A stretch of 18,579 nt of DNA from the IMG/VR virus record IMGVR_UViG_3300039366_000108. The stretch is one strand, 5' to 3'. The DNA is from a virus. Lineage: Duplodnaviria > Heunggongvirae > Uroviricota > Caudoviricetes. A program made the position numbers and the translations under genes. Positions 3,359 through 7,303 of this stretch are shown piece after piece (within the stretch, counting starts at the first letter, position 1; every line of letters begins with the position of its first letter). The notes under the pieces were generated by a model. The model made no database searches. It saw nothing but the letters and a program-made list of their open reading frames with translations, and was not told where the DNA came from.

Positions 3359-3556
3359 ATGGCAAACTCTCTTATTCGTTTAACGGAAGTTCAGCGTAGA
3401 ACTGGATATAGCAAGGCATGGATTTATCGCCTTATGGGGCAAGGTAAATTTCCTGCATCAGTTAAAATTGGCTCGCGAGCTATTGCTTTCGTTGAGAGTG
3501 AAATTGACGAGTGGATTAATCAGCGTATTGCGGAATCACGCGGAACAGCTACCTGA
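3359..3556 (+). CDS. alpA: AlpA-family phage transcriptional regulator/excision activator (small HTH)
   Basis: 65 aa; motif LTEVQRRTGYSKAWIYRLMGQGKFP...EIDEWI typical of AlpA family; SD AGGTGA upstream. Confidence 0.8.
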   Translation: MANSLIRLTEVQRRTGYSKAWIYRLMGQGKFPASVKIGSRAIAFVESEIDEWINQRIAESRGTAT

Positions 3557-3634: not shown

Positions 3635-4483
3635 ATGAAACAGCGAAAAACGCCCGTACAGGGGCAGGGCTTCGTTCGGCCTGAAAACCAGAATCTGCAA
3701 AATTTCGGCGAAATTATCCCGGTTATTTCCGGCGTTATTGGCGGACGTGAAACCAATATTGTTAGCGCCAGAGCGTTGCATAAGGCGCTGGGTGTGAAGC
3801 GTGATTTCACAACCTGGATTAAAGGACGCATTGATGAGTACGGATTTAAAAAGGGCGTGGATTTTGAAGTTGTAGATAATTTGTACTTTGATTCCCCGAA
3901 ACGGGGGAACCAAAGTGTAAATATTGAACAGTTTGATTTTGATTGGACAACAAAGCGCGGCGGTGATCGTCGCAGTGAAGACTATTTGATCTCCACGAAC
4001 ATGGCGAAAGAACTGGCGATGGTCGAGCGCACCGAACAGGGCCGCGCCGTTCGTCAGTACTTCATCAAATGCGAGGAGGAGCTACACAAGGTAGCGCCAG
4101 TGCGTTCCGCAGCGTTACGCCGGGAACTGAAAGCCCGTATCTCCGTTGCCAGCTACTTTAAGCCGATGTGTGCCGCGCTGGAGGCGTACCGGGCTGAACT
4201 GGGTAAAAACACACTCCAGCACCACTACACCACGGAAGCCAATATGCTGGCGCGTATCGTGCTGGGTGGCATGACTGCAAAACAGTGGACGCAGGCGAAC
4301 GGCATCACAGGCGAACCACGCGACCACATGAGCACGTTGCAGCTTGAGCACCTTTCTTACCTTGAGCAGAGCAATATCACGCTGATTGAGTTAGGCCTGG
4401 ACTACCACCAGCGGAAAGCTGAATTAATTCGTCTTTCGCAGCGTTGGTTAGCCCGTCGCATGGAGGAAAACAGCCATGTGTAA
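3635..4483 (+). CDS. Phage antirepressor-like protein (AntA-like N-terminus, KilA-C-like C-terminus)
   Basis: SD AGGAG 5 nt upstream; FTTWIKGRIDEYGFKKGVDF motif (AntA-like) and DYLISTNMAKELAMVERTEQGRAVRQYFIKCEEEL (KilA-C-like). Confidence 0.7.
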   Translation: MKQRKTPVQGQGFVRPENQNLQNFGEIIPVISGVIGGRETNIVSARALHKALGVKRDFTTWIKGRIDEYGFKKGVDFEVVDNLYFDSPKRGNQSVNIEQFDFDWTTKRGGDRRSEDYLISTNMAKELAMVERTEQGRAVRQYFIKCEEELHKVAPVRSAALRRELKARISVASYFKPMCAALEAYRAELGKNTLQHHYTTEANMLARIVLGGMTAKQWTQANGITGEPRDHMSTLQLEHLSYLEQSNITLIELGLDYHQRKAELIRLSQRWLARRMEENSHV

Positions 4484-5155
4484 CGCTCTGACCGTTACAA
4501 AAAGAGAAAGCGCCCCGTTGCCGGAGCGCCTTTGTGAACGAATAGCCTACTGCGCCATATTGCTTACTGTCTACGAGGCAGATTATAGCGTTGTGGTCGC
4601 ACAGAGTGAAGGCGCTGATCACCGTTACTACAGCACGCCAGAAATGCAGAATATTTTGCTGCAAAATGTCGTTGGTCACGCTGTCCGGAAAGCAAAAAAT
4701 TTTGCTGGTGGCGCGACTGATGCGATTTTGTCAGGTCGCAAGGTGATGATCAATCTGATGTCTAATTTCGTTCTGGATAAAACAAAGGCGACCGCAGAGG
4801 GCCACCAGTGGGAAAGCTACACACTTGAACACATCGCCAACAATGCCAGATTTGCGGCTGGTGGGCAATGTGATCAGTGTGCTGGCTTGCTGGTGGGCTA
4901 TTCCTGCTCTTTAACATTGCCATGCCGCGATGTTTTCCAGGTATGCGACCCCATTTTTGTGCGCCTGTACTCTTTAAGGAATTTCTCAAGGATAAACGCA
5001 CAGGGCGCGAATCTGTCTGACTCATATTCGTACGTTATCTTTCTGCGCTGTCTTTTCCGTGCCGGTGATGGTGTATTGGTCGATTCTTTGTTGGTCATTC
5101 TGTGTACCTGTAAAGCAATGCGCCGGAGTTCCTCACACCACGGCGATGATAGTTA

Positions 5156-5461
5156 TTATTCTGATTCTTTGGCCTTGCGGCGCTGGAGTTCTTCACGTGC
5201 GACGGTGACGAGCTGCCCGATCTCCTCGACAGCTTTGACTCCGATTTTTTCCACCTGCGCCAGTGCATTGAGCGAAGAAACCAGGGGATTTTCTCCGCTT
5301 CCTTCTGCCTGGCGGCGGGCGATCTCACCACGCATGGCGGTTACTATGAATCCGGCGTTGCTTTCGCCGTCCAGTTTTACGGATTCCATGCCTTCAAAAG
5401 CATCATGTGGGATACGAATTGAAATCTGTTTTGATTTGTCGTTGATAGTGTTTTTTGCCAT
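5156..5461 (-). CDS. Putative ribbon-helix-helix DNA-binding protein (candidate repressor), 101 aa
   Basis: Strong SD AGGAGA 7 nt before ATG (MAKNTINDKSKQISIRIPHDAFEGMESV...); beta-strand-helix-helix-like N-terminus; divergent from the rightward operon with operator dyads between. ORF track start at 5500 is probably too long. Confidence 0.6.
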   Translation of the reverse strand: MAKNTINDKSKQISIRIPHDAFEGMESVKLDGESNAGFIVTAMRGEIARRQAEGSGENPLVSSLNALAQVEKIGVKAVEEIGQLVTVAREELQRRKAKESE

Positions 5462-5483
5462 GTGCATTCTCCTAAACAAAAGA

Positions 5484-5560
5484 TGTGATTCAGTATACAC
5501 AAAAAAGAATCACAAAAAATACTTGACCTGTGATTCAGTTAAATTTAATTTAAATCACAC
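5484..5560. promoter_or_regulatory. Operator/promoter region: four TGTGATTC half-sites in alternating orientation, overlapping a candidate rightward promoter (TTGACC 5523-5528, TAATTT 5546-5551)
   Basis: TGTGATTCAG at 5484-5493 and 5529-5538; inverted GAATCACA at 5507-5514 and AATCACAC at 5553-5560; about 23 bp periodicity. Confidence 0.45.
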
Positions 5561-5648
5561 CTCAGTAAGAGGATATAAACGACAACGCCCCGAACTGTTT
5601 GCGGCAGTAGCGGGGCGTCTAACCAAACCGTTAAATGAGGTAACGATT

Positions 5649-6014
5649 ATGGCTGGGGCACAGCATACCCAAACTCACCCTAAATTTATATACACCTTCC
5701 TGGCGGTGCACCGTGATTGCATGGCTGACGGTAAAAACACTGTTCATGTAGCCGCCGATACGCTGGTTGATGCCTGCGAGATGCTCAATGACATGGGCTA
5801 TATCTCGGCAACATGGAAAGGGCGCGAAGAAAACACGTTGTTTATTCAGAAATGCGAAAACAATTTTATCTGGCGTTTTATCGCCCTGAGTACGGCACAA
5901 CCGCGCGTGATTCACATCGAGGCCACCAGCGAACAGGAAGCACGCCAGCAATCTCCTGATGGCTGCGTGATGGTATTCGCTGCCCGTATTCGCCAGGAGG
6001 TGGAGCATGTGTAA
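5649..6014 (+). CDS. Hypothetical protein, first gene of rightward operon (121 aa)
   Basis: SD GAGGTAA upstream of ATG; stop overlaps next start (ATGTGTAA). Confidence 0.55.
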   Translation: MAGAQHTQTHPKFIYTFLAVHRDCMADGKNTVHVAADTLVDACEMLNDMGYISATWKGREENTLFIQKCENNFIWRFIALSTAQPRVIHIEATSEQEARQQSPDGCVMVFAARIRQEVEHV

Positions 6015-6231
6015 TGCAACATGGCCTGATGCAGCGGTAGACGCTATCAAAACGCTGATGGATTCACTTATTGAGATTTCTGCTATCGCTGGTGTGGCGC
6101 ATAAACACGCAGCCAGAGAATCAGAATGCATCTCCCATTATTTAGCATTTGTGCAGTTGAAAGCCGATCAGGCACTGGATAAGGCCGGAAAAATTATCAT
6201 GGCTGATGTACAGGAGGTGCACCATGCATAA
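6007..6231 (+). CDS. Hypothetical small protein (74 aa)
   Basis: Start overlaps upstream stop; same frame-chain of coupled ORFs. Confidence 0.5.
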   Translation: MCNATWPDAAVDAIKTLMDSLIEISAIAGVAHKHAARESECISHYLAFVQLKADQALDKAGKIIMADVQEVHHA

Positions 6232-6589
6232 CCTGTCAATTTCTGACCTTAACAGCATTCAGTTTGACGAGATATTTTCCGGGCAGCTACTGGTCAACGT
6301 GGAGAATGGACGCGTGGTAAGTAATTATCACCTGCCGGATGGTGCAATTGCCGGAAGCGTTGAAGCATTGCTGGAACTGGCGGAACGTGCGCGACTGATT
6401 AAGCCGTCAACGTGCCATCACGATGATGATCTGCATTTTACCGGGTGTATGGTGAGTCACTACGAAAACGGCGTTGAAGTATCCTGCGAACGTCTGCGTG
6501 ATGATTGCTGTTTCGGCACACTGCCGGAATTTATCGAATTGCTGACCAGTTGCGGTTATCAGGTCATTCAGGGGGGTAAACATGCGTGA
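6224..6589 (+). CDS. Hypothetical protein (121 aa)
   Basis: ATG preceded by AGGAGG; overlaps upstream stop (ATGCATAA); ORF track start at 6206 is probably too long. Confidence 0.55.
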   Translation: MHNLSISDLNSIQFDEIFSGQLLVNVENGRVVSNYHLPDGAIAGSVEALLELAERARLIKPSTCHHDDDLHFTGCMVSHYENGVEVSCERLRDDCCFGTLPEFIELLTSCGYQVIQGGKHA

Positions 6590-6815
6590 TGATCGTTTTA
6601 ATTCCCTGAAACAGGAGTTTGATGGCGCACCGGAAGATACATCGGGCGCATTGTTGAGCATTGCTGACATGATGAAAGCTGCATATTTTCTTATCAATAC
6701 CAGTGGCTACAAGTCAGAGGGTGAAATGATTCTTAGTATTGCGTCGGACTATGCTGAATATGTGGCAGAGACGCGTTACAGAAGAAAATCTCTGGAGGAT
6801 GTAAGCCATGCATAA
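6582..6815 (+). CDS. Hypothetical small protein (77 aa)
   Basis: Start overlaps upstream stop; coupled operon. Confidence 0.5.
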   Translation: MRDDRFNSLKQEFDGAPEDTSGALLSIADMMKAAYFLINTSGYKSEGEMILSIASDYAEYVAETRYRRKSLEDVSHA

Positions 6816-7008
6816 TCATGAAGCGCATGTACCCGTAGTGCTTAATGTGCCAGATGATTTCACCGGACGCGTGCTGGTTTACCTTGATAAAGAAAAAGTG
6901 AAATCACAATGCCGACTGAAAAGTAATGAGATTGTTGGTTCTCCTGAATTTTTTTCTGAACTTTGTATTCGTGCGGAAATAAAACCGGAACTGCTGACAG
7001 GAAAATAA
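6808..7008 (+). CDS. Hypothetical small protein (66 aa)
   Basis: Start overlaps upstream stop (ATGCATAA). Confidence 0.5.
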   Translation: MHNHEAHVPVVLNVPDDFTGRVLVYLDKEKVKSQCRLKSNEIVGSPEFFSELCIRAEIKPELLTGK

Positions 7009-7012
7009 AACC

Positions 7013-7303
7013 ATGAAAAAGAAAAATTCTGGCTTTACTGCCAGCGGCCTCTCTCGGCCTGAAATCCGCCCCGGTGATATTTTCCGGGACACCAGACGCG
7101 GGGGACGGGTGGTTATTCGTCACGTTACGCCAGGCAATATCACCTACCGCCGTGAGGCTTACGAATATGACTGCGTAATGCCGCGCCGTCAGTTTGAGCG
7201 TGATTTTATTCTGGTGGAAAACAAACAACAGGCAGTGGCGAGACGTGCAGCCACGAATATTAAAAAAATCCGGGCAATGTTGGTTGCGGGAGGTAAGAAG
7301 TGA
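7013..7303 (+). CDS. Hypothetical basic protein (96 aa)
   Basis: SD AGGAAAA upstream; stop overlaps primase GTG start (GTGA). Confidence 0.55.
   Translation: MKKKNSGFTASGLSRPEIRPGDIFRDTRRGGRVVIRHVTPGNITYRREAYEYDCVMPRRQFERDFILVENKQQAVARRAATNIKKIRAMLVAGGKK

Follow-up and report, generated by a model that had tools for sequence, protein, structure and literature searches.

What controls replication in Gram-negative phage-inducible chromosomal islands (PICIs)? Their global repressor has been called "unclear", and the induction model is built on AlpA alone (PMC6092414). We considered this question for one locus in an 18,579-nucleotide stretch of viral DNA (IMG/VR record IMGVR_UViG_3300039366_000108; the whole stretch is called the window below). 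A first-pass annotation, made from the sequence alone, had proposed a genetic switch there, consisting of a ribbon-helix-helix (RHH)-like repressor divergent from the replication operon and four half-sites over a rightward promoter. We conclude that the 101-aa protein encoded at this locus is probably an Arc/Mnt-type RHH repressor with operators over the rightward promoter of a PICI. A concrete repressor candidate with defined operators addresses the stated gap, and this one occurs in EcCICFT073, in EcCIMP1-like islands, and, in its long form, in 654 of 5426 complete Escherichia coli genomes (12%).

An RHH-like protein and two putative paired operators

The features that carry the argument are as follows.

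5156-5461, minus strand: RHH protein gene (YlcI/YnfO family), 101 aa, an open reading frame (ORF) annotated by RefSeq as "YlcI/YnfO family protein"
5484-5514, no strand assigned: left operator (sites 1 and 2), TGTGATTC-N15-GAATCACA, bracketing the -10 of the repressor promoter, at the same position in all site classes
5529-5559, no strand assigned: right operator (sites 3 and 4), TGTGATTC-N15-AAATCACA, lying over the rightward promoter from its spacer through the -10 to the expected start
5492-5497, minus strand: putative -10 of the repressor promoter, TATACT; TATAAT, TATACT, TATATT, or TATAGT is kept here in all site classes
5523-5551, plus strand: putative rightward promoter, from sequence and conservation, with -35 TTGACC (5523-5528), a 17-bp spacer, and -10 TAATTT (5546-5551)
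5649-6014, plus strand: Icd-like protein gene, 121 aa, first of the rightward operon (NF033153, 81 bits; start ATG 5649)

The minus-strand ORF, its N-terminus (MAKNTINDKSKQISIRIPHDAFEGMESV), and its orientation are as first described, and transcription divergent from the replication operon is supported. A Shine-Dalgarno (SD) sequence, AGGAGA, lies at 5469-5474, 7 nt before the ATG at 5461. Residues 9 to 50 score 64.9 bits, against a cutoff of 30, with the NCBIfam YlcI/YnfO N-terminal domain (NF041551); the PHROGs entry for the protein is of unknown function. A single-chain AlphaFold2 (AF2) model built on 34 homologues (predicted local distance difference test [pLDDT], 84) is RHH-like, with a strand-like extended segment at about residues 11 to 17, helices at 19 to 28 and 35 to 54, and a long helix at 59 to 100. 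The predicted head, about residues 9 to 54, has the beta-alpha-alpha topology of some 45 residues expected of an RHH domain. Its sequence contains an alternating polar/hydrophobic strand, Q-I-S-I-R-I-P, and a G-x-S/T/N turn (G32-E33-S34) before helix B. The R16-x-P18 end of the strand is readable in the sequence, and R16, P18, and E33 are invariant among the 34 homologues. Residues 12 and 14 and the invariant R16 align with Arc Q9, N11, and R13. An hhalign comparison places QISIRIPHDAFEGM on Mnt HFNFRMPMEVREKL with the strands in register, at a probability of 1%. Sub-threshold matches to PF07704, an antitoxin transcription-factor family, were obtained with 25 of the 34 homologues (best E value, 0.001), and sequence searches of the PDB with the 101-aa protein returned no RHH protein. 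Taken with the predicted fold, the RHH assignment is well supported, though it falls under curated family thresholds.

The protein alignment is a mosaic in which residues 1 to 35 vary in blocks and residues 36 to 101 are almost constant. The C-terminal helix (59 to 100) is modeled with a pLDDT above 90, and the C-terminal half is highly conserved in all variants, with L67, E71, I73, and G74 invariant. A profile search weakly relates residues 58 to 101 (window 5159-5290) to the helix-hairpin-helix of Hef (1x2i, E value of 0.006); AlphaFold draws this region as one continuous helix. This conserved helix may serve oligomerization or signal reception.

The half-site TGTGATTC occurs exactly at 5484 (plus), 5507 (minus), and 5529 (plus), giving three matches against 0.76 expected in the whole window, all inside 53 bp. 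These three positions stand as first reported; the fourth site starts at 5552 rather than 5553 (5552-5559, minus strand, TGTGATTT) and matches at 7 of 8 positions. The starts are 23, 22, and 23 bp apart, in agreement with the periodicity of about 23 bp noted earlier. Together, the four sites form two 31-bp inverted repeats of the form TGTGATTC-N15-RAATCACA, at 5484-5514 and 5529-5559, a pattern that 200 shuffled versions of the window never matched. In addition, TGTGATTCAGT, 11 nt long, forms a direct repeat with copies 45 bp apart.

The proposed rightward hexamers are present with their 17-bp spacer and agree with the consensus at 8 of 12 positions. All four half-sites had been described as lying over this promoter, which holds for the right-hand pair. 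The left-hand pair instead overlaps the -10 of the repressor gene, itself at a suitable distance from the AGGAGA and ATG of that gene, and the array is better described as two operators. With the left operator on the repressor's own promoter, autoregulation is implied. The intergenic region, first given as 190 bp, measures 187 bp from the RHH gene to the first rightward ORF when ATG 5649 is taken as its start.

The fold prediction, the site arrangement, its overlap with promoter-like hexamers, and the co-variation described below were obtained directly, and from them we infer binding, repression, autoregulation, and a route of induction. Dimers would read the four sites, each of 8 to 9 bp and about 23 bp from the next, through the N-terminal beta-strand. 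Occupation of sites 3 and 4 would block RNA polymerase at the rightward promoter, which is expected to drive the Icd-like gene, the small ORFs, the DUF4222 gene, and the primase; with this promoter blocked, the island would not replicate. Occupation of sites 1 and 2 would limit the repressor's own leftward promoter. The variable head and the operators would then constitute an exchangeable, immunity-like specificity cassette, and repression would probably be bypassed or lifted downstream of AlpA.

Co-variation of the protein head with its sites

Both the gene and its upstream region were available for 103 loci, 12 from a species-level genome set, 11 from an exact-protein look-up, and 80 from IMG/VR. 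The named genomes are from Escherichia, Enterobacter, Erwinia, Xenorhabdus, Photorhabdus, Serratia, and Phytobacter, with one record labeled Martelella, and the looked-up proteins are, by their source names, also from Edwardsiella and Klebsiella, making about ten enterobacterial genera overall. In all 103 loci, four sites are found at about -99, -75, -54, and -30 nt from the RHH gene start. The sequence of the sites follows the variant of the N-terminal strand, with 11 strand variants, at least seven site types, and no discordant locus among the 103. Six strand classes and their sites are as follows.

KQISIRI/RQISIRI: sites TGTGATT
QLTTVRV/QLFTVRV: sites TGTGTTTC
QSLTARI: sites GTGTAAG
QQ(L/I)NARF: sites TGG(T/G)ATTC
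Q(L/V)KN(I/V)RI: sites GTGTGTAT
QMTTIRV: sites GA(G/T)ATACA

The half-sites are thus conserved within a class and change together with the protein head between classes. Within a class, the sites are fixed and the spacers drift, most clearly in class C, which spans Xenorhabdus, Photorhabdus, Serratia, and E. coli. Kept in all site classes are TTGAC between sites 2 and 3, TAAnnT 17 bp further on, and TATAnT in the left operator. The Q(L/V)KN(I/V)RI and QMKNIRF classes (loci L003, L005, and L021) have two direct copies followed by two inverted ones, and L014 and L015 carry a fifth site further upstream. Matching of protein and sites in at least seven classes points to an immunity-like specificity between co-resident satellites.

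The gene order is constant across loci: int, alpA, a variable ant/bro zone, the divergent RHH gene, the icd-like gene, DUF4222, and a primase whose type varies. The same TGTGATT sites accompany a D5_N/DUF5906-type primase in the window and a DUF927/Toprim primase in L014 to L017. Since identical sites occur with different primase families, we rejected the possibility that they are initiator iterons. In a tblastn search of 50,697 phage genomes, the 101-aa protein had no match at an E value of 1e-3. One 7.5-kb scaffold labeled Martelella alba, an alphaproteobacterium (L005, NZ_SZPQ01000078.1), holds an enterobacterial-type module, which suggests that the assembly is contaminated or mislabeled.

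A shorter form of the module occurs in the model island EcCICFT073 (L106), where an RHH protein and a homologue of the small gene downstream are accompanied by GTGTGGCCCAC sites; the promoter hexamers are the same as in the window, and the first gene is Icd-like. Its RHH protein is 59 aa long (L106 9474-9653) and joins the head to an RRKAKEQE tail without the middle helix, and it looks like an internal deletion of about residues 51 to 92 of the long form. The gene was tagged late by the PGAP annotation pipeline (C_RS30120), as was the small gene downstream; both were therefore probably absent from the annotation used in 2018. The earlier suggestion of a control layer beyond AlpA is partly supported, in that there is now a repressor candidate. 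That candidate is not an oddity of the window, as the shorter module sits in the very island on which the AlpA-only model is based. The further suggestion that an Ant-like protein belongs to such a layer is not supported, as Ant/Bro genes are absent from many repressor loci (L019, L021, L023, and L024).

A structured leader, a stop-free frame, and the surrounding island

Further features of the region are as follows.

5585-5646 (conserved stretch 5575-5656), no strand assigned: predicted conserved structured leader, two hairpins with compensatory base changes
4476-6014, plus strand: stop-free frame of 512 codons, starting at the ant stop codon and ending at the Icd-like stop; it crosses the operators and lies antisense to both minus-strand genes
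4898-5098, minus strand: 66-aa gene, co-transcribed downstream of the RHH gene, from its fixed offset and coding signature
4507-4532, minus strand: terminator-like hairpin and T tract ending the leftward RHH operon, with a second at 4787-4806
3359-3556, plus strand: alpA (Pfam PF05930, 2.4e-19), convergent with the RHH operon
3635-4483, plus strand: antA/antB-type gene (Pfam PF08346, 7.8e-24), convergent with the RHH operon

In RefSeq, the Icd-like gene begins at 5793. The ATG at 5649 is backed by a conserved SD with ATGGC and by a codon-position signature of 38/14/95 in 5649-5792. Just upstream, base-pairing conservation indicates that the leader is a conserved structured RNA. It consists of a GC-rich hairpin 1 (5585-5618), an invariant linker, TCTAACCA (5619-5626), and a hairpin 2 (5630-5646) with the SD in its loop. 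RNAalifold found compensatory changes in 7 of 12 predicted pairs. The inner stem is 92% paired and hairpin 2 is 96% paired, and none of 500 shuffles reached the observed covariation score. The outer helix of hairpin 1 is 42.7% paired in the register tried, so that support is limited to the inner stem and hairpin 2. The fold z score is better on the minus strand (-4.44) than on the plus strand (-2.69). In the minus-strand version, a T-rich tail follows in all classes, and most of the non-canonical cells would be G-U. Because of these three properties, a cis-antisense RNA ending at hairpin 1 may cover the SD of the Icd-like ORF and its start. For the leader, Rfam gave no family; the best match, to the plasmid R1162 antisense RNA (RF00043), scored 19 bits against a gathering score of 55, which is at chance level. 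A search for C4 and isrK RNAs gave none at the gathering score in the whole window, where the tRNA was the sole match, and none at E values up to 10 in 5400-6100.

Upstream of ATG 5649, the Icd-like reading frame is open for 1197 nt, back to 4452; it crosses the leader and the two operators, lies antisense to the RHH and 66-aa genes, and includes one unannotated stretch. Its first ATG, at 4476, overlaps the ant stop codon and is preceded by GGAGG. The other two plus-strand frames contain 5 to 8 stops each within the 187-nt intergenic region alone. In EcCICFT073 (L106 8752-10053), the same frame is open for 1101 nt, and the other two hold 19 and 28 stops. Across loci, 8 of the 11 strand variants have no stop in the intergenic part, with a per-locus chance of 0.9 to 5% for the stop-free representatives in dinucleotide shuffles. 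The intergenic lengths of the stop-free loci (181, 187, 190, 193, 196, 199, and 208) all equal 1 modulo 3; the exceptions to the open frame are L003, L005, L004/L006, L057, L083, and L099/L104. The first start of the frame abuts the stop of the upstream gene in unrelated contexts, the upstream gene encoding Ant in E. coli, Serratia, and Klebsiella, 309-aa proteins in Xenorhabdus and Photorhabdus, a 203-aa Bro-N ORF, or AlpA. A conserved 512-aa protein was rejected as the explanation because the non-overlapped parts of the frame, with mismatches by codon position of 88/64/50 and 40/48/38, have no third-position excess. It seems, from this pattern of substitutions, that openness is kept and not a peptide product.

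The P. aeruginosa AlpA is a processive antiterminator (PMC7969949). We put forward tentatively, as a possibility that we hold to be less likely than not, that helper-induced, AlpA-driven transcription reaches the replication operon by passing antisense across the repressor gene and then through operators that are occupied, with continuous translation shielding it from Rho. The repressor would then be silenced and overridden in a single act, and a cis-antisense RNA over the icd-like leader would be a third layer. If true, such read-through would account for the induction of Gram-negative PICIs by AlpA alone despite a repressor, and it would be an unusual case of an ORF held open for being translated and not for its product.

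The island was annotated from the chromosome of E. coli APEC E123, which is identical over the 3-kb stretch compared (4400-7400). In that annotation, it adjoins tRNA-Thr, downstream of proA. The gene order begins with an integrase, a hypothetical gene, an AlpA-type regulator, and an AntA/AntB-type protein, followed by the two minus-strand genes. To the right of the repressor, on the plus strand, are the Icd-like gene, four small ORFs, DUF4222, the primase, ProQ/FinO, PerC, further ORFs, and GapS1. Co-oriented int, alpA, and primase genes, a length of about 10 to 20 kb, a specific att site, and the lack of a full virion gene set agree with a Gram-negative PICI of the EcCICFT073/EcCIMP1 type, and the synteny of the window is shared with EcCICFT073. 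EcCIMP1 is a helper-dependent PICI with the same integration site and gene set as the window island (PMC11773190). Helper-phage induction and transfer have been demonstrated for EcCIMP1 and EcCICFT073 (PMC11773190, PMC6092414). By its genes, the window island is an EcCIMP1/EcCICFT073-like PICI. The GapS1 defense gene lies near the right end of the island (window 15403-17001), and the Ant protein has, in its C-terminal part, a match to the PADLOC candidate PDC-S22 (1.7e-10).

Competing explanations and known systems

Several observations weigh against assigning the 101-aa protein as the repressor of the rightward promoter. At an E value of 0.01, it matches no Pfam family, hence no curated RHH family. 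The repressor promoter has no recognizable -35, and a consensus promoter scan lists neither it nor the rightward promoter, both being weak matches. The 23-bp spacing is wide for RHH dimer-dimer contacts, and the orientation of the sites is class-dependent, alternating in most classes. The near-identical strands QLTTVRV and QMTTIRV pair with different sites, and specificity is therefore not set by the strand alone. The 59-aa form of EcCICFT073 lacks the C-terminal helix. Overproduction of AlpA alone triggers replication of that island, and uncontrolled replication harms the cell (PMC6092414); a repressor in EcCICFT073 is therefore either overridden or not dominant. Finally, as the head codons adjoin the sites, at 30 to 100 bp, their co-variation could partly reflect linkage in one recombination block. 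Linkage does not account for the concerted change of four separate copies or for their constancy against drifting spacers.

Among the alternatives, the one that survives best is that the RHH protein binds its sites mainly as a roadblock or brake on transcription from the alpA side, or as a Cro-like modulator, and does not serve as the main off-switch of the rightward promoter. The repressor operon and alpA-ant are convergent, and from ant to the operators no terminator is predicted on the plus strand, compared with two on the minus strand that close the repressor operon. The stop-free frame joins both operons, and induction of EcCICFT073 by AlpA alone also fits this explanation. We consider it unlikely nevertheless, given that in every class a conserved promoter-like element has its spacer, -10, and start exactly at sites 3 and 4, the classical geometry of promoter occlusion. 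A roadblock and promoter occlusion are not mutually exclusive.

The small gene downstream of the RHH gene raises the possibility of a type II toxin-antitoxin pair, in which the RHH protein would be the antitoxin of the 66-aa protein and the sites would only autoregulate the pair. The 66-aa protein is basic (SPARKRQRRK...RFAPCAF), and its gene has a coding signature of 13/21/34 and always begins 58 nt after the RHH stop where it is present, in 45 of about 105 loci, including EcCICFT073. It belongs to PHROG 21027, of unknown function, and has no Pfam or PADLOC match and no toxin or defense family, so that a conserved adjacent toxin gene is lacking. The gene is missing from the Xenorhabdus, Photorhabdus, Edwardsiella, Serratia, and Klebsiella loci, in which the RHH gene and all four sites are retained. 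The core of the opposite promoter carries two of the sites, which an autoregulator of such a pair would not need there. The toxin-antitoxin explanation is accordingly very unlikely.

It is likewise highly improbable that the repeats are bound by another factor, such as AlpA, a primase or initiator, or a host or helper protein, with the head co-varying by hitch-hiking in a recombination block. The short distance between head codons and sites (<100 bp) and the mosaic breakpoints around codons 35 to 50 of the gene and to the right of site 4 would permit it. Against it, all four copies change in concert by class as the spacers drift, the TGTGATT sites are identical in loci whose primase types are unrelated and whose first ORFs differ, and no further paired sites were found elsewhere in the element, for example near alpA. 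Least credible of all is that the protein is not a DNA-binding RHH protein and that the repeats are promoter-associated sequence without a dedicated binder, for which the missing curated family match, a Foldseek search of the PDB that returned nothing for the model, and an AF2 monomer whose N-terminal segment is extended without a formal beta-strand can be counted, set against the predicted topology and strand motif given above.

An RHH repressor acting on the rightward promoter, the reading that we favor, would have relevance for PICIs engineered as delivery vehicles, in which leaky or uncontrolled replication is harmful. Literature searches on YlcI/YnfO, on RHH proteins with PICIs, and on a master repressor of Gram-negative PICIs found no functional description. 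Among the nearest known systems are Mnt and Arc of the P22 immI region, which are also small RHH repressors with an x-x-R-x-P strand motif and operators overlapping back-to-back promoters; mnt is, in addition, divergent from the operon it represses. Mnt has a C-terminal helical oligomerization domain after its RHH head. A comparable coiled coil joining dimers could be formed by the predicted helix at 59 to 100, with its high pLDDT and weak helix-hairpin-helix resemblance, although the EcCICFT073 form is without it. The differences are that there is no significant sequence homology (the hhalign result above), that the window has four sites about 23 bp apart compared with one operator of 17 to 21 bp, and that it controls a replication operon, from icd-like to primase, in place of ant. 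The ant gene of the window lies to the other side of the repressor, and the two are not conserved together.

A further counterpart is the group of Stl (SaPI) and Rpr master repressors of Gram-positive PICIs. Their genes are likewise divergent, placed in a phage satellite with int on one side and the replication operon on the other, and they exist in many specificity variants. Stl proteins are helix-turn-helix proteins, unlike the RHH candidate here, of which the same silencing role is expected. Stl/Rpr keeps the island silent until a helper phage is active, and Stl is inactivated by helper proteins that bind it (PMC6092414). Induction in the Gram-negative group requires AlpA (PMC11773190, PMC6092414).

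Two further systems bear comparison. With plasmid pMV158, the window would share an RHH repressor on a replication promoter, possibly combined with a short cis-antisense RNA that covers the first gene's leader and SD; the RNA is inferred in the window. In pMV158, the CopG RHH repressor acts on the promoter of the replication operon together with the cis-antisense RNA II, and CopG is co-transcribed with repB and has one pseudo-symmetric site. As in P1 c4-icd-ant and P4 CI, an Icd-like ORF heads the regulated operon with a structured RNA just upstream. In P1, translation of icd governs downstream transcription. The window differs from both in having no C4 or isrK match and in that its control would include a protein repressor, which is not described in the RNA-immunity papers. 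C4/isrK-type RNAs have been reported in the "Bro zones" of some PICIs (PMC10111431). YlcI of DLP12 and YnfO of Qin, from E. coli K-12, have the same NCBIfam N-terminal domain and are shorter proteins of cryptic lambdoid prophages; no paper on their function was found. The system is of a familiar kind, with analogues in Arc/Mnt, CopG, and Stl; within Gram-negative PICIs, it appears to be previously undescribed.
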